A stretch of 42,042 nucleotides of DNA, from sequence record NC_048112.1; one strand, written 5' to 3'. The position numbers were made by a program, and so were the translations under genes. Origin of the DNA: Escherichia phage Skarpretter. The first letter of the stretch is position 1; every line of letters begins with the position of its first letter. Below, one piece after another: positions 1,247-36,927 of the stretch. The notes under the pieces are model-generated. The model was not told the origin of the DNA and did not search any database. It saw only the letters and a program-made list of their open reading frames with translations.

Positions 1247-1831
1247 TTATACACGAGCGGGCATTACGGCATATTCCGCAACGCCGTTTGTTGAATTGAT
1301 GGTAATAAACGCCGCGTCGGTTGCGTTTTGCAGCGTTATTTTAACGATACTGCTTTTCATTTTAAGCGCCTTGCAGATACGCGTTACCGTGGCGAAATAT
1401 TCCACGTTAAAGCCGATCTCCGTTACGCCTGCGCGGCCCTCTTTCGGCGTGATGAATACGCGGTTAAAGTCAGGGTAGCGCCCGTCTACAACGTCAACGG
1501 TGCCAACTGCAACGCGTGCGGCTTTCAGGTCTAACCCTTCCAGATCTTCGGCCTTGTCGTAAGGCATTGCCAGCCAGTACACGATCCCGGCGTCAGTGTC
1601 GATCGCCGCCGTCTCGATCCCGCGCATTGTTGGCACGGCGGAAAGTTTCAAAATGATCCCCTCGTCCGGCGCGTTGATCAGATCTTCGGTGATACGTAAA
1701 GCGCGGTGCCCGTCCGTTGCCTGCACCTGGTTTTTAATGAAGTGTAAGCCGTTCAGGTAGTAGCGCACGTCAAACTTAGCTTGCGCCAGCATAGCGGCTT
1801 TAATGGTTGCGGCCTTCGCATAAATCATCAT
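1247..1831 (-). CDS. DNA polymerase III beta sliding-clamp (DnaN) homolog, truncated: domains II-III only
   Basis: 194 aa; by-eye alignment to E. coli DnaN from ~residue 130 to the C-terminus: DVRYYLNG, ATDGHR, VDGRYPDF (DnaN VDGRFPDY), EIGFNV, AEYAVMPARV (DnaN AAYVVMPMRL). AGGAG SD 9 nt upstream of ATG. Confidence 0.7.
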   Translation of the reverse strand: MMIYAKAATIKAAMLAQAKFDVRYYLNGLHFIKNQVQATDGHRALRITEDLINAPDEGIILKLSAVPTMRGIETAAIDTDAGIVYWLAMPYDKAEDLEGLDLKAARVAVGTVDVVDGRYPDFNRVFITPKEGRAGVTEIGFNVEYFATVTRICKALKMKSSIVKITLQNATDAAFITINSTNGVAEYAVMPARV

Positions 1832-3937: not shown

Positions 3938-3982
3938 ACTATACACTTAAACGTGAATATCTGTTTTAGCAATTTGTGCTAT
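3938..3982 (-). promoter_or_regulatory. conserved promoter element driving SPFH gene
   Basis: Minus strand reads ATAGCACaaatTGCTAAA, 23 nt, TATAGT, tcaACTCAC, ~50 nt before ATG at 3893. Confidence 0.6.
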
Positions 3983-4957: not shown

Positions 4958-6958
4958 ATGGTAATAACCCCCGTCAAGGAAACAAACTTTGCCTGGCAAC
5001 TCATGGAAACGATCGAGGAGCGCATAGCCCGCACGCCGATCGCGGAGTTAATGGCGAAATTTGGCCCAATGCCGCTTGATCCTTACCCGTACCAGTGGGC
5101 CGCTTATGAGGCGGTAGCGGAATGCCTGCGCAAGTACCCCGGCCCGATCATTGTCGAGGCCGCTGTAAGTGCTGGTAAAACGATCATGATCTCCATGCTG
5201 GCGCGGCGCATTGTCGAAATGAAACAACGGGCGCTGGTGATAAGCCGCCAGGCGGAGATCGTGGATCAGGACGCCACGGAGTTATGGAATTTTGACGTTA
5301 AAAACTCCGTGTTTTGCGCCGGGCTGAATAAGAAAAGCACGCATTACCCGGTGGTCTGCGGCTCGGAGAAAACCGTAGCCAACGCGATCGAGGGGAAGTT
5401 AAAAGACTTTGCCCCGCTCTTTCTGGTGATCGATGAATGCCACCAGGTAAACATTGACGATCTGATAGCCTCCGAAACTGCGGAGATCCTGGAGGTGATC
5501 GAGGAAAACGGCGAGCCTTACGAGCGCGTGCGCGTCGGGGAAACGCTGGAGGAAATGATCGCCAATAAGCGCAACTCCTACACGATAATCATTCGTGAAT
5601 TGCAAAGACGTTGCCAGGAGGTACACGGCACCCGCTTACGCGTGATCGGCTACACTGGCACGCCGTACCGGGGCACCGATTCGATCGTAAATGAGGACTA
5701 CGAAACGCCGGGTTTTTGGCGTAAGACGGTGATCCGCATTACAACGCCTTACCTGGTTAAAGTCGGCTCCGTTGTGCCAACGTTCTTTGGCTCCTCCGCG
5801 CTGGGTTACGATCTCTCTGAGTTTGACCAATTCAAGGAGGAGGGCTTAACGGACTTTAGCGACGAGCAATTAAAGGCCATGCAACGCAAGATAGCGCGTG
5901 AGAAGGATTTAACGCACGCAATCATGGCTGAGGTGTACGAGCTAACAAAACGCCGTAACGGCGTTCTGGTGACGTGCTCCGGCGTCGATCACTGCCACGA
6001 GGCCGCAAGCGCGTTACCGGAGGGCGTGACCTATGCGATCATCACGGAGAAAACCACAACCCGCGATCGAATGGACATTATCGCCGGGGCGAAATCCGGC
6101 GCGATAAAGTTTGTCTTTCAGGTCATGGCGCTTACAACTGGCGTTAACGTGCCACCCTGGGACACGTCCGTAATTCTGCGCCGTATCGGCTCGCTAACGC
6201 TGCTCGTGCAACTGCTGGGGCGCGGTATGCGCATTCTGAAAAAAGAGCATATAGCGGCGGGCATGGTGAAAAAAGATCACCTCGTTTTGGACTACTCCGG
6301 CACTATGGCGGCTATGGGTTCCCTGTTTGAAGATCCGATCCTGGAGGATTACACATACCAATCTGAGCAAGTGGGCGAGAAAACCAAAGAGTGCCCGGAC
6401 TGCTTAACGATGAATACAGAAAAGGCCCGCCGTTGCTCCGGGATCGTGAACGGTGAAAGGTGCTGGCATTTCTTCCAATCAAAGACCTGTGACGACGATG
6501 TAGACGGATCGACGGGTCGCATTCTCCGCCCAGGATGCGGGGCCGAAAATGACATAGTAGCCAAAAATTGCCGTTGCTGCGGTAAGCGGCTGATCGACTT
6601 TAACAAAAACCTGTCAGGCCAACATTACACGGAGGGGGATTATTGCAACGTGGTAGATTGGGAGCCGCAAGTAGGCCGGGGCGGCTCGTTTGCGATCCAG
6701 TACACGTTGGAGAAAGACGGGATCACGTTTAAGGCGTGGGAAATCCACTGGTTAACGTCCAACAATCCGGGCGCGTATCAGGTCTGGAAAACGTTTGTTA
6801 ATACCCACGTTTTCGACGAAACCGGACGTAAGACGCTGCGCAACTGCCGCACCCCGGAGGCGGTGTTAAAGAACGTGCATTACCTCATGAAGCCAAAGCG
6901 CGTTACGCACCGTAAGACGGGCGGCGGCAAAGATACCATTAACAAAAAGGTGTTTTGA
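4958..6958 (+). CDS. superfamily 2 DNA helicase (DEAH-type) with C-terminal Cys-rich zinc-binding region
   Basis: 666 aa; Walker A AVSAGKT, Walker B VIDECHQ, motif VI-like LLGRGMR; C-terminal CPDC...CRCCGK cluster. Confidence 0.8.
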   Translation: MVITPVKETNFAWQLMETIEERIARTPIAELMAKFGPMPLDPYPYQWAAYEAVAECLRKYPGPIIVEAAVSAGKTIMISMLARRIVEMKQRALVISRQAEIVDQDATELWNFDVKNSVFCAGLNKKSTHYPVVCGSEKTVANAIEGKLKDFAPLFLVIDECHQVNIDDLIASETAEILEVIEENGEPYERVRVGETLEEMIANKRNSYTIIIRELQRRCQEVHGTRLRVIGYTGTPYRGTDSIVNEDYETPGFWRKTVIRITTPYLVKVGSVVPTFFGSSALGYDLSEFDQFKEEGLTDFSDEQLKAMQRKIAREKDLTHAIMAEVYELTKRRNGVLVTCSGVDHCHEAASALPEGVTYAIITEKTTTRDRMDIIAGAKSGAIKFVFQVMALTTGVNVPPWDTSVILRRIGSLTLLVQLLGRGMRILKKEHIAAGMVKKDHLVLDYSGTMAAMGSLFEDPILEDYTYQSEQVGEKTKECPDCLTMNTEKARRCSGIVNGERCWHFFQSKTCDDDVDGSTGRILRPGCGAENDIVAKNCRCCGKRLIDFNKNLSGQHYTEGDYCNVVDWEPQVGRGGSFAIQYTLEKDGITFKAWEIHWLTSNNPGAYQVWKTFVNTHVFDETGRKTLRNCRTPEAVLKNVHYLMKPKRVTHRKTGGGKDTINKKVF

Positions 6959-7409: not shown

Positions 7410-8414
7410 ATGAGTGATATTTACTGCCAGGTGTACCAGGCGGACGAGTTAACAAACGACGCCTATCACGAGGAAACGGATCACGTTTCCGGCTCCAGCC
7501 TGCATATGATGTTAAAAAACAGCATGGCGGGCTGGCGCTTCCAGAAGAAAAAAGACGAGGCCGAAAAAGCCAAAGAGAAGGAAAGCAACGGCGCGGCACA
7601 AAAGCCGCTGGCGTTCGGCACCACGGGCCATACGTGTATGCTTGAGCCGTCACGCTTTGAGGCTGAATTTTACCGGATGCCTGATCCTGCCGATTATCCA
7701 AAGGCTTTAACGTCCGTTGCTGCGGTCTGCTCATGGCTGAAAGAGAAAGGCGTAGGCGGTTACTCCGGTAAGAAAATGCCCGATCTTTATCCGCTCGTGG
7801 ATATGACCGGGGAAGATGTGATTATCTGGCAACGCCTTTGGGAGCAACACCAAAAGCTGGCGGGTGATCGTGAGCAAGTGCCAGCCAAAGACTACGATCG
7901 CGTCCTCATGATGCGTGAGGTGCTTTTAAACAACCACGATTACAGCCAGATCATTTATGACGGCGTGCCGGAGTTATCGATCTTCACTGAGATCGACGGC
8001 GTAAAAATCAAAGTGCGACTCGATCGCGTGACCAAAGACGCGGCATTAGTGGACTACAAAACCACGCAAAGCGCGGAGCCGGAGAAGTTCGGGCGGCTGG
8101 CGTTTGACAACGGCTACTGGTTAAAAATGGCGTTGCAACATGACGCTTTCGAAATCGCATACGGTCAAAAACCATCTTCCACCAACTTACTTGCCCAGGA
8201 AAAGGAGGAGCCTTATTTAGCGATGATGTACGCGCTAACCCCTGAGCAATTAATGGTGGGCCGGATGCAATATAAAACGGCGCTGCAAATGTATAAAGCG
8301 TGTCGTGATCTGGACGTTTGGCCCGGCTATGCTGGCGGCGTGGCGTCAATGAGTTTACCAACGCCCGGTTATATTCAGGCGCGTTACAAAGAATATTTTA
8401 AAGTTGAGGTTTGA
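7410..8414 (+). CDS. PD-(D/E)xK (RecB/YqaJ-like) recombination exonuclease
   Basis: 334 aa; LDRVTKD...VDYKTT nuclease motif; immediately upstream of erf and ssb. Confidence 0.65.
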   Translation: MSDIYCQVYQADELTNDAYHEETDHVSGSSLHMMLKNSMAGWRFQKKKDEAEKAKEKESNGAAQKPLAFGTTGHTCMLEPSRFEAEFYRMPDPADYPKALTSVAAVCSWLKEKGVGGYSGKKMPDLYPLVDMTGEDVIIWQRLWEQHQKLAGDREQVPAKDYDRVLMMREVLLNNHDYSQIIYDGVPELSIFTEIDGVKIKVRLDRVTKDAALVDYKTTQSAEPEKFGRLAFDNGYWLKMALQHDAFEIAYGQKPSSTNLLAQEKEEPYLAMMYALTPEQLMVGRMQYKTALQMYKACRDLDVWPGYAGGVASMSLPTPGYIQARYKEYFKVEV

Positions 8415-8416
8415 TC

Positions 8417-9097
8417 ATGGAAAACATTATTCATTTTTCGGAAACACGCGGCGCGTTTATGGCTGCATTCTTTGAAGCAAAAAAGAATATCGGCGTCATT
8501 GCAAAAAAGCGTGAAAATAAACACCTGAGTAGCAAATATGCAAACCTTACGGACTACCTGGACGCGATCGACTCCGCGATCGAGGATGCCGGGTTAATGG
8601 TTATCCAATCGCCGGGGAAATTCACGGCGGCGGGTGATCTGCCGATGGAAACGCGGATCGAGCATGTGGCAAGCGGTGAATTTATGGTTGCCCAAATGGA
8701 GATCCACGTAGACCGCAAAAACGCCCAGGGCGACGGCTCCGCGATCTCCTACGCTCGCCGCTACCATATCGGCGCATTGTTCGGCCTGTCTGCTGAGGAC
8801 GACGACGGCAACGGGGCCAAACGCAAGGCCAAAGACTACATGAAAGAGTTTGATCTGATCACCGATATCAAAGAGTTGAAAGACGAGGCACGCCGCGCCT
8901 TTATGGCTCTGCGGGGTAACGAGACGGAGCAAAACCTGATCCACACCTACGTGTCAAAACGTGAAGCTGATTTGACAATGAAGGGCGCAACCGGGTTTAA
9001 TCCGGCTCAACCGCGCAACGCTCGCCAGGCCCAAAAAGCGGAGCCAGCGCCAGCGCCAGCGGCGGAAGATAAACCAACACCCCCGGAGAAATTTTAA
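8417..9097 (+). CDS. erf: Erf-family single-strand annealing protein
   Basis: ISYARRY signature of the ERF family; likely ATG at 8417 with GAGGT SD; synteny exo-erf-ssb. Confidence 0.75.
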   Translation: MENIIHFSETRGAFMAAFFEAKKNIGVIAKKRENKHLSSKYANLTDYLDAIDSAIEDAGLMVIQSPGKFTAAGDLPMETRIEHVASGEFMVAQMEIHVDRKNAQGDGSAISYARRYHIGALFGLSAEDDDGNGAKRKAKDYMKEFDLITDIKELKDEARRAFMALRGNETEQNLIHTYVSKREADLTMKGATGFNPAQPRNARQAQKAEPAPAPAAEDKPTPPEKF

Positions 9098-22092: not shown

Positions 22093-23046
22093 TTACCCGG
22101 CTTTCTTCGCCGCTTTCAACTTTTCTTTAAGTTGCATAACGGTTGTATAGTCGCCGGATTCGCGGGCTTTCTCTAATGCCGCCTCTAAACCGTGGATCGT
22201 GGTCTGCGTCGCGCCTGTTTTAACAGCCGGGGCACCCTTCGCCGTCGATTTAGCTTGCGGCCTAAAGCCTGCGCCTTTGTCAATTTCCGCTAACAGATAG
22301 CCCAGGGCTACCGGATCGCCGGAAACGTCTTGCAGTTGTTTACGCAAAGCGGCATTGCGGCCCAGGGCCAACACTGCACCAGCCGGGTTTTTGCTGTTCA
22401 TCAGCAAAGTAAGCTGGAGGTTTTGCGGGATCTCGGCGGCTACTACCTGCTCCGCACGTTCAAAGCCCGGCACCTTTAACACTTTGGCGCGTTCAGCGTT
22501 GTAATTCTGCGTGCGCTCGTTTAGCTTCGCCTGGAGTTTCTCGGCCTGCTGTGCTTTCGAGTGGTTGCGCTCCGTGATCGCGTCACGGGTCTTTAACCAT
22601 TCGGCGTGGGCGGCGTCGTACTTCTCTTGATCCCAATCGATCCCGGCGTCGCTCATTTTCGGAGCGGGTGGGATTTCTTCGGGCAAGTTCTGCGGCGCGG
22701 CCTGCTGCTGCTGGGCGGATTTTTCCTTAAACGCTGCTCGTTGCTCACGCAATTTACTACGCAAGTGTTTTACCAGGTCGGTGTCACCTTCCTGATCTTC
22801 GTCGTCGGCGGCTTGCGAGGCCAAAACTTCACCGTTAAAAGTAAACTCTAACGCTTCGTCGTCCGCTTCGGCGTTCTGCTGTCCGGGATCATCTTCCCCG
22901 TTGTCGTCGTCACCGTCGCCGCCGTCCTGGCCGTCGTCGTTGTCGTCGCGCTGGGTTTCCTGCTCCTGGTTCTGCATCTGCTCGTAAGCGCTCGCGCCTG
23001 CGTCGTCGTTTAAATCGGTGTTGTTCTCTGCATCATTTCCGAACAT
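22093..23046 (-). CDS. scaffolding protein
   Basis: 317 aa, very acidic Asp/Glu-rich N-terminus, coiled-coil, basic C-terminal helix KLKAAKKAG; immediately upstream of coat. Confidence 0.75.
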   Translation of the reverse strand: MFGNDAENNTDLNDDAGASAYEQMQNQEQETQRDDNDDGQDGGDGDDDNGEDDPGQQNAEADDEALEFTFNGEVLASQAADDEDQEGDTDLVKHLRSKLREQRAAFKEKSAQQQQAAPQNLPEEIPPAPKMSDAGIDWDQEKYDAAHAEWLKTRDAITERNHSKAQQAEKLQAKLNERTQNYNAERAKVLKVPGFERAEQVVAAEIPQNLQLTLLMNSKNPAGAVLALGRNAALRKQLQDVSGDPVALGYLLAEIDKGAGFRPQAKSTAKGAPAVKTGATQTTIHGLEAALEKARESGDYTTVMQLKEKLKAAKKAG

Positions 23047-23644: not shown

Positions 23645-24100
23645 TCAAAATGGAATATCAAGATCAGGATCTTTCTTTGGTGCTGGCTCCACGATCTCCG
23701 CGTCCTCGGCGTCGATCTCCTGCTGTGGCTTGTCGTCTGCCGGGATGATCTCACTCTCAACCGGGCCTTTGTAGGCGATAGCCTTAAACCGGGCGATCTT
23801 GCCCTGCAACTGCGTTTCTGTCCGGTACGCGGCGGCACGGTGGCGGCTTAACTCGGTTTCGTACTTCTCGATCATATCCTTCGCTACGCTGTCGATCGGC
23901 GCTGGCTCGTATTCGATCTCAACGTCTTTAACGGCGAGTAGTGCCCAGGTGCCAAACATGCGGAGGCTGTCGGCGTTGCCGTTTGGGCCGTAGCTCTCGT
24001 GCTGCGGGTTGGTGAAAACTTCTACTTTGCCCTCGGTGCCCTGGTAGGTTCCGGCGTCAACGCACTGGCAAATGTAAAGGCGGGTCGTGATAGTCTGCAT
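23645..24100 (-). CDS. hypothetical protein with SSB-like C-terminal tip (..KKDPDLDIPF)
   Basis: ~151 aa from ATG at 24100 (GAGGAG SD); acidic disordered C-terminus ending DLDIPF, as in SSB. Confidence 0.6.
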   Translation of the reverse strand: MQTITTRLYICQCVDAGTYQGTEGKVEVFTNPQHESYGPNGNADSLRMFGTWALLAVKDVEIEYEPAPIDSVAKDMIEKYETELSRHRAAAYRTETQLQGKIARFKAIAYKGPVESEIIPADDKPQQEIDAEDAEIVEPAPKKDPDLDIPF

Positions 24101-24146: not shown

Positions 24147-24191
24147 ACTATAGCCCCATCCGTGGGGCTTGTCTTTAGCAAAAAGTGCTAT
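24147..24191 (-). promoter_or_regulatory. conserved promoter element driving the 24100 unit
   Basis: Minus strand ATAGCACttttTGCTAAA, 23 nt, TATAGT, ctcCTCACAttcac. Confidence 0.6.
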
Positions 24192-26478: not shown

Positions 26479-26522
26479 ATAGCACGAATTGCTAAAGCAT
26501 TTCACGTTAAAGTGATTATAGT
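26479..26522 (+). promoter_or_regulatory. conserved promoter element driving the 3-gene cassette
   Basis: ATAGCACgaatTGCTAAA, 22 nt, TATAGT, aatCTCACAttcac, ~35 nt before ATG at 26557. Confidence 0.6.
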
Positions 26523-33401: not shown

Positions 33402-34973
33402 TCAGCGTTCAGCCAGCGGCGGCGGCGATGCGTCGTTAGCCGTCAAAATCTCCTCGCCGTCATTGTTGATAAACGAGCGGATCAGCTGCTTTTTGATCGC
33501 GTTCTCGATCGAGCGCTTGATCTGGTATGGCGTTTTCGCGGTGCGCTCCGCCATTTGGTTTGTGGTGTCCATGCGTTCATGCTGCCCGCCGCGTGCCATG
33601 AGGAAATCGATCACGTCCTGCTCGCTGTTGCTCGGCCTGGTGAGTCTCGGATCTGGCTTGTTCTTCGACTCGCCGCGCTGCGCTTTCTTCTGCTCCTCCT
33701 GCTGCGCTACCAGTTCAGCGGCTAACGTCGCCTCGTCCACCAGTTCGCACGCGTTCAGGTAGCCACCACAAAACAGCGGGTCAATCGGGTTAAGTCCTTT
33801 CAGCGGCTGCGCTGGGCGGATCGAATCCTCAAACTCTGCGAGATATTCCGCCCGGTGCGCTTCTGCTTCGTCGTCCGGGAAGATCTGCATTGTCCGTTTA
33901 GTCAGGCGCAAGAGTTGGGCGATCCCCCCACCACGGCGCTTGCCTGCTGCCATGATGATTTTATCCGGCTGGGTTTTGTCCTGCGTGAGCGAAAACGTTT
34001 TCCAAACCGCACCCTTTGCCGCGCCACCTCCGCGTGACTCCAGCACGAGATAAGGCGATCGCTCGGCCTCCTTGCTTACGTGGGGAATGAAGATCCCGCA
34101 CGCTCCCAGCGCCAGGGCAAAGCGATAACCGCAAAACGTAATGTACTGCTGATCGTCGTTGCTGTTTTCGTCCAGGGGTTTACCGTTGCGCTCGGCGCTG
34201 GATAGGTGAAAACTCTTTGAGTCATAAACAACCATGCACACCTGGCGATCCCCGGCAAAGTCTTTGATCTGGCGGATCTGGCGTAATGCGTTCTCACCCC
34301 ATACCGGGCGATCGAGTTGTACGACGCGCTCAACCTCGCGCCCGTCCGGGCCGATCTCTTTCACGGTCTTAACTTTGGTTGTGTCGGTCAGCGCTGCGGG
34401 GTGCTCGCAGATCAGGACGTGATCCAGGATGTTTTCGCCCCACTCCAGTTGCCAGGCGGAAAGGCAGTTAGTGACGGTTTCGGCGTCCTCGGTAAAAAAC
34501 ACGCTGATCCCTTTCTTCACCATGAAAGCATCCAGGAAAGGTCTACCCGTTGCCACGCACGCCGCCAGCATGGACAAGAGCGTAGTTTTGCCCACGCCTG
34601 GCCCGGCGTTGATCTCGTTGATCGTGTTCATGTTAAACAGGTATTGCACAAACGGCTTTGGGATCTTCGGTTTCGGGTTCTCAATGAATACGGAGGCGGG
34701 CTTACGCTCCGGCTTTGGCTGCTGCGGGCCTGCGTCCTCGTTGTCCGGCTCGTCCACCTGCTCGGAGTGATCGGCAAGGCGTGCTAACTCCGCGTCGCTA
34801 TAGTCGGGAGCCTGCGCCGCTAACCACTCCTCCGGCATGTCCGGCACGGTGTCGCCCAACTCTCCCCAGGTCTGCATGTCCTCGTAATCCGGCTCGAATT
34901 GCTCCGGCTCCGGGGTTGGCTCCTGCTGCTGTAAAGAGCCGTTGCCACGGTGTTTTGTGGGGTCGAATTTCAT
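33402..34973 (-). CDS. P-loop NTPase (RecA/DnaB-like Walker A), possible replicative ATPase/helicase
   Basis: 523 aa; acidic disordered N-terminus, Walker A NAGPGVGKTTL, Walker B-like VCMVVYDS; first gene of leftward operon. Confidence 0.65.
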   Translation of the reverse strand: MKFDPTKHRGNGSLQQQEPTPEPEQFEPDYEDMQTWGELGDTVPDMPEEWLAAQAPDYSDAELARLADHSEQVDEPDNEDAGPQQPKPERKPASVFIENPKPKIPKPFVQYLFNMNTINEINAGPGVGKTTLLSMLAACVATGRPFLDAFMVKKGISVFFTEDAETVTNCLSAWQLEWGENILDHVLICEHPAALTDTTKVKTVKEIGPDGREVERVVQLDRPVWGENALRQIRQIKDFAGDRQVCMVVYDSKSFHLSSAERNGKPLDENSNDDQQYITFCGYRFALALGACGIFIPHVSKEAERSPYLVLESRGGGAAKGAVWKTFSLTQDKTQPDKIIMAAGKRRGGGIAQLLRLTKRTMQIFPDDEAEAHRAEYLAEFEDSIRPAQPLKGLNPIDPLFCGGYLNACELVDEATLAAELVAQQEEQKKAQRGESKNKPDPRLTRPSNSEQDVIDFLMARGGQHERMDTTNQMAERTAKTPYQIKRSIENAIKKQLIRSFINNDGEEILTANDASPPPLAER

Positions 34974-35007: not shown

Positions 35008-35036
35008 AATATACGCTAACGGGATGTATTACACAA
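35008..35036 (-). promoter_or_regulatory. putative sigma70-type leftward promoter (TTGTGT-17-TATATT) for ATPase operon
   Basis: Minus strand TTGTGT, 17 nt spacer, TATATT, ~30 nt upstream of ATG at 34973; -35 overlaps a 9-bp inverted repeat. Confidence 0.45.
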
Positions 35037-35061
35037 CAAAACTTTAAAACTATTGTTGTGT
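35031..35061. repeat. perfect 9-bp inverted repeat ACACAACAA-N13-TTGTTGTGT (candidate operator)
   Basis: In divergent control region between ATPase operon and plus-strand early island; overlaps -35 of leftward promoter. Confidence 0.6.
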
Positions 35062-35074
35062 AAGTTTTGTGTGA

Positions 35075-35118
35075 ATAGCACGAATTGCTAAAACAGCTTT
35101 ATGAATACTATGTATAGT
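35075..35118 (+). promoter_or_regulatory. conserved promoter element driving plus-strand island
   Basis: ATAGCACgaatTGCTAAA, 22 nt, TATAGT, tatCTCACAccaac, 32 nt before ATG at 35151. Confidence 0.6.
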
Positions 35119-35150
35119 TATCTCACACCAACGAATTGAGGCAAAACAAA

Positions 35151-35696
35151 ATGACTACAGCAATCACAATGAAAGTAACCCTCGGCGCACTGGCTGGCCT
35201 GATCTCCTACTGCGAAAACAAAAAAATGAAAATGGCAAAGATTCAGGCGCACGTTTCTAACATCGCCTTTATCGAACTGAATCACCCGGCCTTTGCTTAC
35301 GCTAAAGACCTGCTCAACGAGGCCGCTGATAAGCGCCGCACCTTCTCCGGCGTTGCTAACTGCATCCAGGCGGCGATTACTGAGATCAACCGCGTGATCG
35401 ACGCTGCGCACGCTGAGGCCCTGGAAATGGACGCGGTAGTAAATGATTGCGTAACCCGTTTCAAATACTGCATCGATCACTATCAGGCTGAATGCAACGT
35501 TAAAAACGAGATCCACGGCCTCGTGATTGCGAAAGGCTACGCGCTCGGCTGGACGGCTCGCATGATGGTTAAAATGGTGGCTAACGTGTGGCGTTTGGGT
35601 GAGGCGGCGGCAAAGGCACACCGCGCACATACTGCGGCAATGCTGGCGGCGGCTCCGGCTAATGGCTCAATCCCTGATTATGATCTCCCGTTTTAA
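35151..35696 (+). CDS. hypothetical protein with SSB-like C-terminal tip (..SIPDYDLPF)
   Basis: ~181 aa from ATG at 35151 (GAGG SD); C-terminus IPDYDLPF. Confidence 0.6.
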   Translation: MTTAITMKVTLGALAGLISYCENKKMKMAKIQAHVSNIAFIELNHPAFAYAKDLLNEAADKRRTFSGVANCIQAAITEINRVIDAAHAEALEMDAVVNDCVTRFKYCIDHYQAECNVKNEIHGLVIAKGYALGWTARMMVKMVANVWRLGEAAAKAHRAHTAAMLAAAPANGSIPDYDLPF

Positions 35697-35710
35697 CTCC
35701 GGGGCGGCGA

Positions 35711-35754
35711 ATAGCACGAATTGCTAAACGCCGCGTCTAAATACTATGTATAGT
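35711..35754 (+). promoter_or_regulatory. conserved promoter element
   Basis: ATAGCACgaatTGCTAAA, 22 nt, TATAGT, tatCTCACAccaac, before ATG 35788. Confidence 0.6.
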
Positions 35755-35787
35755 TATCTCACACCAACAAACAACGGAGTAAACGAA

Positions 35788-36102
35788 ATGAAAACTTTAA
35801 CAATCGCTCAACATGCTTCACTGGCTCGTGTATGCACCGCGTTACGCCTGGCAATCAGTAAAGGTAACATCACCGTAAGCAACGCGATCCGCCTGCTGTC
35901 CGGTGACGCAACAACCGCCGCTGGCGAGTTGGGCTTAACCCTCACCCGCCGCCAGGGGTCAACAACTCATGACCTGGACACGGTGGAGGTTGTGGAGTAC
36001 GCCTTAATGGCGCTGGCGTCCGGCTTTAAGCGTGACGTGCTGGAAGCGCTGAAAGAGTTACGCGCCGATAGTCACGCCGCTATTGACCGCGCCAAAATCT
36101 AA
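35788..36102 (+). CDS. hypothetical protein
   Basis: ~105 aa from ATG at 35788 (GGAG SD). Confidence 0.55.
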   Translation: MKTLTIAQHASLARVCTALRLAISKGNITVSNAIRLLSGDATTAAGELGLTLTRRQGSTTHDLDTVEVVEYALMALASGFKRDVLEALKELRADSHAAIDRAKI

Positions 36103-36431: not shown

Positions 36432-36887
36432 ATGAAACCACAAGAGATCAAAAAGGCGGGCATCTTCTCAAAGGATGATATTCACTGCTTCACTGACTGC
36501 GGCTACAACTGCAAGGCAAAGGTAAGGGCTGATCTTGAGGCGCATTACGCGCCAATCGCTGCGGCGCTGGGTAACGGCTGGCGCGTTAACATCTGGCACA
36601 ACGGCGGCTGGCACGCTAACCTGGCGCATGATGAATCACAATTTTACCTGAGCGATCGAGCGGTGCGCGGCGGTATCAGTGCAATGAAGGTGGACGCCGA
36701 TCGGTTTGAGGACAACGTAAACCGCTTTGAGGTGTTCAATTACGAATACCCGGAGGGCACCAGCCAGGTTTGGGTGTACGGTAACGATCCGAAAGACGCG
36801 ATCCGCAACGCCTTTAACGCCGTGTCGGAGCGGGTAGTAGCCTACATGGTGCAACAACAAAAGATCCTGGACGCTTTCCCCGGATAG
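36432..36887 (+). CDS. hypothetical protein
   Basis: 151 aa, Trp/Asn/Gly-rich; stop codon lies inside next promoter palindrome. Confidence 0.55.
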   Translation: MKPQEIKKAGIFSKDDIHCFTDCGYNCKAKVRADLEAHYAPIAAALGNGWRVNIWHNGGWHANLAHDESQFYLSDRAVRGGISAMKVDADRFEDNVNRFEVFNYEYPEGTSQVWVYGNDPKDAIRNAFNAVSERVVAYMVQQQKILDAFPG

Positions 36888-36927
36888 CACTTTTTGCTAA
36901 ACGCTCCTCGTAAATACTTGGTATAGT
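36884..36927 (+). promoter_or_regulatory. conserved promoter element
   Basis: ATAGCACttttTGCTAAA, 22 nt, TATAGT, tctTTCACAccaac, before ATG 36959. Confidence 0.6.

Follow-up and report, generated by a model that had tools for sequence, protein, structure and literature searches.

The C-terminal tip of SSB, the protein that binds single-stranded DNA, is the docking peptide at the centre of genome maintenance in bacteria and a target for antibiotics. Its last eight residues (SSB-Ct; DFDDDIPF) recruit the SSB-interacting proteins, and the IPF motif within them is required for SSB function; in crystal structures, only IPF or DIPF is resolved, bound to ExoI and RecO, and the DIPF tetrapeptide is a 10-20-fold weaker binder than the octapeptide (PMC10143822). 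Here, we describe a protein of Escherichia phage Skarpretter that ends in the distal part of this peptide and is predicted not to be an SSB. Skarpretter (MK105855), the type species of Skarprettervirus and its sole one, is a podovirus that was isolated on E. coli K-12 MG1655 and has a genome of 42,042 bp with 55.8% GC (PMC7552041); this complete stretch is referred to as the window. The gene occupies 35151..35696 on the plus strand (stop codon included) and encodes 181 amino acids (aa), recorded in UniProt as an 'uncharacterized protein' (A0A3G8F2X8). The product terminates in ...AAAPANGSIPDYDLPF*, with IPDYDLPF as its last residues, an ending that an earlier note on this DNA had pointed out and that translation confirms. 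We regard it as an even call that this protein is an accessory host-takeover factor whose tip mimics SSB-Ct and docks into the pocket of a host SSB-interacting protein.

Beyond SSB-Ct itself, several described proteins and compounds provide points of comparison. In phage T7, the SSB gp2.5 and the helicase-primase gp4 both have acidic C-terminal tails that end in Phe, and the two tails bind the same polymerase sites. DdrB is a non-OB protein with a disordered, SSB-like C-terminus, and this motif is dispensable for radioresistance. The phage SSB-like protein Bas52_0087, which has an FDDDIPF tip, triggers the DRT10 defence and is linked to host ExoI/SbcB (bioRxiv 10.64898/2026.04.29.721553); this preprint shows that the axis of SSB tip and ExoI matters during infection. 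Finally, synthetic SSB-Ct peptide and small-molecule mimetics inhibit SSB-ExoI, SSB-RecO, and SSB-DnaG contacts (PMC10143822, PMC5872125). The principle (SSB-Ct docking, the sharing of tails in T7, and synthetic SSB-Ct mimetics) is known; the family of tip carriers described below is previously undescribed and its breadth is new, and we found no description in the literature of a non-OB phage protein with an SSB tip.

The earlier note counted three proteins of the window that end in D-(I/L)-P-F, and a scan of stop-to-stop frames recovered precisely these. Four of the 851 frames of at least 30 aa end in PF and three of the four, all genuine genes, in D[IL]PF; the SSB, gp28, and the 181-aa protein are the only real genes of the window with a [DE][IL]PF ending. 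Given the window's own amino-acid composition, the chance of such an ending is 2.2e-5 per protein, with 0.0012 expected in 57 genes and a probability of ~8e-7 for at least two non-SSB genes. A spurious frame with this ending occurs once among 4,870 frames from Skarpretter and five related genomes. The note's argument that the motif is not due to chance stands on these figures, together with its retention in homologs.

The first of the other two carriers, the phage SSB (9101..9637, plus strand), has an OB fold, is a near-copy of E. coli SSB (NF006533, 278 bits, above the cut-off), and ends in ..MDFDDDIPF, a tip identical to that of E. coli SSB. The second, gp28 (HOU67_gp28; 23645..24100, minus strand), is a 151-aa protein ending in ..KKDPDLDIPF that is encoded between the portal and scaffold genes. 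A weak match to phrog_2932 raised the option that gp28 is a scaffolding protein, which was rejected because the true scaffold is encoded at 22093..23046 (phrog_648, 1.5e-58). The two non-SSB carriers had been called unrelated, and our comparisons agree: BLASTP aligns them at 20% identity over 94 aa (E = 0.002, single comparison), and the predicted gp28 combines a beta domain, a long helix, and a disordered tail of ~40 aa where the 181-aa protein is all-helical. By sequence and predicted fold, they appear to be unrelated proteins. Homologs of gp28 that are ~30% identical in C130_2, STP9, and sortkaff (Hungariovirus, Sortsnevirus, STP9) keep the DIPF ending, and the homolog of Kc166B ends in NVPF. 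The linker carries an indel among close gp28 homologs; IPF is kept nonetheless.

Conservation of the tip in the family of the 181-aa protein is extreme. A word-indexed search recovered 18 relatives, and every full-length ortholog (15/15; 58-93% identity) ends in [DE][IL]PF, including the ortholog of Kosakonia phage Kc166B (..VLKDSELPF); the five-residue stretches leading toward the tip vary among orthologs (IPDYD, TPDYD, ILGYE, IKGYD, IPGYE, LKDSE, IPENE). An index-free profile search covered 1.8 billion representatives, and all matches that aligned through to the C-terminus carry the tip. When the C-terminal module (C-module; aa 82-181) was used as the profile, 77 matches were obtained. Those with E <= 4e-22 number 46, span the whole module, and end without exception in [ED][IL]P[FY] (46/46). 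The remaining 31 weaker matches have for the most part only HxEALEMN repeats in common with it (up to six copies, in Enterobacter, Salmonella, and Citrobacter prophages), and none has the tip (0/31). In total, 56 database clusters (drawn at 90% identity) and the window protein are tip carriers, which amounts to 56/56 of the clusters with a C-module, and the profile searches place the family in Escherichia, Klebsiella, Kosakonia, Enterobacter, and Pantoea phages. The C-terminal PF, whose loss from homologs the earlier note would have counted as a refutation, is retained in every full-length ortholog and, as P[FY], in every complete C-module match.

Within the tail, conservation is confined to the very end. 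A logo of 55 distinct tails gives 3.6 bits at position -4 (E46/D8/G1), 3.7 bits at -3 (I46/L9), 4.3 bits at -2 (P55), and 4.2 bits at -1 (F54/Y1), and positions -5 to -11 carry 1.0-1.9 bits only. Purifying selection thus appears to act on the last four residues of the family tails and on these only. Exact DIPF occurs in 8 of the 55 tails, and the last ten residues have a mean net acidity of 1.9, with positions -5 to -8 poorly conserved. When C-modules are aligned at 24-30% identity, only five columns are invariant, four of them in the H-x-E-A-L motif (H, E, A, and L) and the fifth being the tip Pro; the I/L and F/Y columns flanking this Pro are nearly invariant. The invariant family residues (an acidic residue, I/L, P, and F with its carboxylate) match those bound in the SSB-Ct/ExoI and SSB-Ct/RecO crystals (PMC10143822). 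They are the distal hook of SSB-Ct, placed at a free C-terminus in a flexible context and found in phages of hosts that themselves use DIPF.

The protein behind this hook had no match in Pfam, PHROGs, or NCBIfam scans, and PDB sequence profiles gave nothing below E = 0.05. An AlphaFold2 model built on an alignment of 14 orthologs (mean predicted local distance difference test score, pLDDT, of 76.6) is all-helical, with seven helices at residues 2-23, 28-42, 46-60, 65-105, 108-116, 120-131, and 136-167. The structure-database match of this model is A0A3G8F2X8 with 100% sequence identity; Foldseek against BFVD returned only this Skarpretter protein itself and one weak relative. The N-terminal domain (~aa 1-80; 35151..35390) is a predicted four-helix bundle comprising the first three helices and the start of the fourth (pLDDT 85-92 over aa 11-80). 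The conserved C-terminal module (aa 82-167; 35394..35651), delimited by profile searches and alignment, contains the HxEAL helix, two short helices, and a long basic helix. Its HxEAL motif is H87-A-E-A-L91 (AHAEALEMD; 35409..35423), and the basic amphipathic helix H7 (aa 136-167; 35556..35651) has a net charge of +4 and an isoelectric point of 11.7. Residues 168-181 (APANGSIPDYDLPF; 35652..35693) have no predicted secondary structure and a net charge of -2, and pLDDT falls below 50 for aa 177-181, such that the tip is predicted to sit in a disordered, exposed context. The tip proper, D178-L-P-F181 with its free C-terminal carboxylate (35682..35693), places Phe at -1, Pro at -2, Leu179 at -3, and Asp178 at -4 of the extreme C-terminus; the residues ahead of L-P-F are P-D-Y-D, one aromatic and two acidic, where SSB-Ct has DFDD.

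The all-helical model without an OB fold and the absence of a family match (PF00436, TIGR00621) argue that the protein is not an SSB. It also has ~14 residues past its last helix in place of the long Gly/Pro/Gln-rich linker of SSBs. The modelled protein is helical and bears the SSB hook on a short, flexible stretch at its C-terminus. It shares all three features of its family, namely the HxEAL opening, the basic amphipathic helix before the tail, and the C-terminal [ED]-[IL]-P-[FY]. The basic helix is a family trait as well: among 18 sampled members, the 36 residues ahead of the last 14 carry a net charge of +1 to +8 (at least +3 in 17 of the 18).

The HxEAL motif extends beyond the tip carriers, with one to six copies in related phage and prophage proteins, and no Pfam family covers this repeat helix. 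In Enterobacter, Salmonella, and Citrobacter prophages, otherwise unannotated proteins (P0064-P0093; e.g., L017, 7001-7909) contain the helix motif H-x-E-A-L-E-M-N/D in up to six repeats. In an Enterobacter lambdoid prophage, the HxEAL-repeat gene directly follows the cI-like repressor gene and heads a leftward operon with kilR and a RecE-like gene.

Both halves of the 181-aa protein recur in other combinations. Its N-domain (aa 1-80) is also found with other C-termini that lack the tip, all in prophage proteins (P0016-18, P0020, P0022). Conversely, the C-module stands behind unrelated N-domains in P0021, P0023-26, and P0028-33, each of which ends in [DEG]IP[FY]. One family member of 120 aa (P0030) is essentially the C-module alone, and the N-domains of P0036 and P0058 are separate genes in phiEco32-like and phAPEC8-like phages. 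These arrangements suggest that N-domains have been swapped between lineages and that the modules act as independent units, in the pattern of fused effector modules. Cultured Klebsiella phages (~48 kb), Enterobacter phages ATCEA23 and ATCEA85, and Pantoea phage PSKM encode complete members, which are annotated as hypothetical throughout, and the family spans phages with quite different replication modules. In the nearest relatives of Skarpretter (C130_2, STP9, sortkaff, and IME_EC2), which share its helicase/primase/exonuclease/Erf/SSB module, the open reading frame (ORF) was not found. Because these relatives lack it while carrying the same replication module, the gene is accessory, and the modules that make it up are independently mobile.

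Set against SSB-Ct, the protein shares the extreme C-terminal position of the tip, the matching classes of the last four residues, and the disordered context; exact DIPF is present in several family members, and the SSBs of both the host E. coli K-12 and the phage use this same tip. It differs in being all-helical rather than an OB-fold tetramer, in its short pre-tip stretch (~14 aa versus a linker of ~56 aa), in the family's low acidity (one to three acidic residues) and preference for E at -4, and in the apparent absence of the proximal DFDD. The T7 tails are a precedent for a non-SSB phage protein that bears the terminal-Phe tail of the SSB, with both addressing one partner, but they consist of long acidic runs without I-P-F and bind the phage's own polymerase. 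In Skarpretter, no polymerase gene was found among the ORFs scanned, the last 14 residues of the 181-aa protein do not form a shared acidic tail of the T7 type, and the tip copies a host motif. Like Bas52_0087, it is a phage protein with an SSB-type tip proposed to interfere with host enzymes that process single-stranded DNA (ssDNA). Bas52_0087, however, has two predicted OB folds and a full acidic tip and is an SSB variant, whereas A0A3G8F2X8 lacks an OB fold and is unrelated to it in sequence. The synthetic SSB-Ct mimetics occupy the IPF pocket in competition with SSB, as we propose here; they are artificial, and the phage protein would be their natural counterpart, to which a specificity domain is attached. 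DdrB resembles it as a non-OB protein with an SSB-like tail, but there is no sequence relation, and tip conservation in the phage family is far stricter.

These comparisons are consistent with the following mechanism. The exposed tip would copy the distal DIPF/IPF part of the bacterial SSB-Ct, and its terminal Phe and carboxylate would dock into the SSB-Ct pocket of an E. coli SSB-interacting protein. In a bipartite contact, the folded C-module (HxEAL helix and basic helix), ~14 residues away, would contribute the affinity still missing and select the partner, a role that we infer because the tip is less acidic than that of SSB and DIPF alone binds an order of magnitude or so more weakly. As a net effect, the host enzyme would be displaced competitively or captured, away from SSB-coated DNA. 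One benefit could be the protection of 3' ssDNA intermediates in the Erf/RecE-type recombination-dependent replication of the phage. ExoI/SbcB, RecJ, and RecQ are candidate host enzymes, attractive because the Erf/RecE-type intermediates on which the phage depends have 3' ssDNA tails.

Several points weigh against this mimicry. The last ten residues of the tip contain one to three acidic residues where the last eight of SSB contain four, and E is favoured over D at -4. DIPF alone is weak on ExoI and RecO, with half-maximal inhibitory concentrations of ~100 and 45 uM compared with ~4.5 uM for the octapeptide (PMC10143822). The distance from last helix to tip is a quarter or so of the SSB linker, so reach and multivalency differ. 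A general competitor for SSB-Ct would interfere with the phage's own SSB. Finally, DdrB cautions that a tail resembling that of SSB can be dispensable, and resemblance alone is no proof.

The best-placed alternative, which we nevertheless consider unlikely, is a replisome adaptor: the protein would bind the AAA_25 helicase, or the origin or DNA through its basic helix, and the tip would recruit a host replication factor that ordinarily recognises SSB-Ct, such as chi-psi of the Pol III clamp loader, DnaG, or PriA, coupling the host polymerase to a phage replisome that lacks its own. The tip gene neighbours an AAA_25 helicase gene in Skarpretter, Kc166B, the metagenomic contigs L007 and L008, and the T1-like Klebsiella phage Haden_MM8. 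This last carrier has a Skarpretter-type replication module with no DNA polymerase annotated, as none was found in the window, and L007 and L008 share its gene order, in which the AAA_25 helicase is followed by a small ORF, the tip protein, further small ORFs, and the lysis genes. The conserved basic helix might bind DNA, and a variable N-domain joined to a constant C-module fits the layout of an adaptor. However, in L009, L011, L012, L013, and L014, the tip gene belongs to islands of small ORFs of unknown function, and no AAA_25 gene lies next to it. Because these other lineages lack the neighbour, we downgraded the adjacency from an independent sign of a replisome role to inherited synteny of one layout. 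The absence of the gene from relatives with the same helicase/primase/SSB module argues that it is not a core replisome part, the 120-aa member does without an N-domain, and the phage SSB already presents a full tip to chi and DnaG. Accessory status, modularity, and a setting among small ORFs fit a host-takeover effector better than a core component of the replisome, and for these reasons we favour the former.

Less probable again is a phage-internal sharing of tails in the manner of T7, in which a single phage-encoded receptor (e.g., the SF2 helicase, the RecE-like exonuclease, or Erf) would bind the tips of all three carriers, the 181-aa protein, gp28, and the phage SSB, and the hand-offs of phage recombination and replication would be ordered in this way. 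Three proteins of one phage do share the tip, and two of them (the 181-aa protein and gp28) have a promoter class in common. Skarpretter also has genes for an SF2 helicase, an exonuclease, and an annealing protein, classes with cellular or phage counterparts that bind SSB tails. RecQ, RecG, PriA, and RadD bind such tails, and HK620 Sak4 is reportedly stimulated by its cognate SSB. Yet the tip is identical to that of the host, the phage SSB is a near-copy of its E. coli counterpart, and nothing marks a phage-specific code. The accessory nature of the gene and the diversity of replication modules among carrier phages also speak against a shared internal receptor.

Slightly more doubtful still is that [ED]-[IL]-P-F serves a role other than that of SSB-Ct, as a beta-clamp-binding peptide, a tag for degradation or for chaperones, or a latch that closes onto the basic helix of the same molecule. 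The beta clamp binds C-terminal hydrophobic peptides (compare QLxLxL and QL[SD]LF), and motifs of this kind are present at the ends of Pol II and Pol IV. An acidic tip beside a strongly basic helix could fold back onto it, and the tip is less acidic than SSB-Ct. The clamp motif is disfavoured by the logo, which has no conserved Gln and lacks Leu at the clamp-motif positions (D/G/C at -6; S/Y/N at -5), and by the Pro at -2, which is invariant (55/55), not characteristic of clamp motifs, and a hallmark of SSB-Ct. This same proline is altered in the ssb113 mutation, P176S. That 8 of the 55 tails are exactly DIPF, and that gp28 and its C130_2, STP9, and sortkaff homologs end likewise, further links the motif to SSB-Ct. 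As for an ending without function, the motif is short, but its repeated occurrence in the window and its retention in every C-module cluster while the flanks vary effectively refute coincidence.

Turning from the host-takeover reading to the surroundings of the gene, translation starts at ATG 35151, with a ribosome-binding site (GAGG, 35139-35142) 8 nt ahead. The TTG at 35136, which the ORF finder had listed, was rejected because all orthologs open with MTTAITMK. The gene is the first on the plus strand past a 177-bp divergent intergenic region, as the earlier note had it; its description of the surrounding island as early, by contrast, is not justified by the data. The divergent neighbour (33402..34973, minus strand) encodes a RepA-like AAA_25 helicase of 523 aa, identified by family scans (Pfam, PHROGs). 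The N-terminal extension of this helicase, ~95 aa long, highly acidic, and rich in Pro, Glu, and Asp (MKFDPTKHRGNGSLQQQEPTPEPEQFEPDYEDM...), appears to be disordered.

A repeat and motif scan located a promoter cassette upstream of the gene (35073..35135, plus strand), comprising the dyad TAGCAcgaatTGCTA (35076-35090), TATAGT (35113-35118), and TCAC. A near-exact repeat of this 63-bp stretch precedes the next gene (35709-35771), and four further intergenic sites have variants of it, for six cassettes in total; one of them lies upstream of gp28. The layout is ATAGCAC-N3-TTGCTAAA, ~20 nt, TATAGT, N4-5, and TCAC, ~75 nt before the start codon, and the same cassette is present in C130_2, STP9, and IME_EC2. 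Exact TAGCA-N5-TGCTA dyads number seven against a chance expectation of 0.65, all of them intergenic (1-15, 3967-3981, 24176-24190, 26480-26494, 35076-35090, 35712-35726, and 36885-36899) and six within a cassette; the dyad at 24176-24190 belongs to the gp28 promoter. A plain sigma-70 promoter (TTGCTA/TATAGT) was rejected because the spacer, at 21-22 nt, exceeds the length that such a promoter allows; the dyad, whose centre lies near -41.5 relative to TATAGT, looks instead like a class-II activator site. This geometry suggests an activator-dependent class of phage promoters. Since the 181-aa protein and gp28 share this class, they are probably co-expressed. Between the AAA_25 helicase gene and the tip gene, inspection of the sequence also revealed a 17-nt inverted repeat with a 1-nt spacer (TTACACAACAAAACTTT/AAACTATTGTTGTGTAA; 35029..35063), which may be an operator or an origin element. 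The next gene (35746..36102, plus strand) probably starts at ATG 35788 (ribosome-binding site GGAG; MKTLTIAQ..) because the ATG at 35746 lies inside the repeated cassette (tactATGtatagt).

Elsewhere in the window, Skarpretter combines two blocks. The morphogenesis block is P22-like and contains the terminase, portal, scaffold, coat, adaptor/closure proteins, needle, ejection proteins, and a colanidase tailspike. The replication-recombination block is T1-like and contains the primase, SF2 helicase (4958..6958), RecE-like exonuclease (7410..8414), Erf (8411..9097), SSB, a candidate RusA-like resolvase, dUTPase, and methyltransferases; its primase, SF2 helicase, RecE-like exonuclease, Erf, and SSB are common to T1-like Klebsiella siphoviruses. 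With no DNA polymerase gene among the window ORFs scanned, replication presumably proceeds via host Pol III. A 194-aa ORF (1247..1831, minus strand) matches the PHROG 'RusA-like resolvase' over its full length and, weakly and over short stretches, PHROGs for polymerases and processivity factors; in IME_EC2, the corresponding position is taken by an ORF of 193 aa (5755..6336) annotated as 'putative beta-clamp protein'. Scans of the whole window detected no tRNA and no Rfam family.

Taken more broadly, and with a likelihood that we place just short of even, the SSB tip may be a short linear motif that enterobacterial phages have repeatedly copied onto non-SSB scaffolds, with at least two unrelated families as carriers, the HxEAL/basic-helix family (56 clusters, from several phage groups) and the gp28 family of Skarpretter-like podoviruses. 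Such proteins would be natural inhibitors or hijackers of the SSB interactome, joining a universal IPF hook to a specificity domain that chooses one host enzyme, e.g., ExoI/SbcB. The natural carriers of the tip known so far are SSBs, and the phage family would be the first natural protein mimic, on a helical scaffold that does not wrap DNA. If true, phages use motif mimicry to manipulate the network of SSB partners, in the way that eukaryotic viruses exploit the linear motifs of their hosts, and the family would represent a new class of proteins for host takeover or counter-defence and would offer a natural template for antibacterials against the SSB hub. The family might also reveal which host enzyme is most limiting for these phages, a role for which ExoI/SbcB is an attractive candidate because of its recently reported role in the control of DRT10 defence. 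The system is tractable, as Skarpretter plates on E. coli K-12 MG1655 and the gene is non-core.

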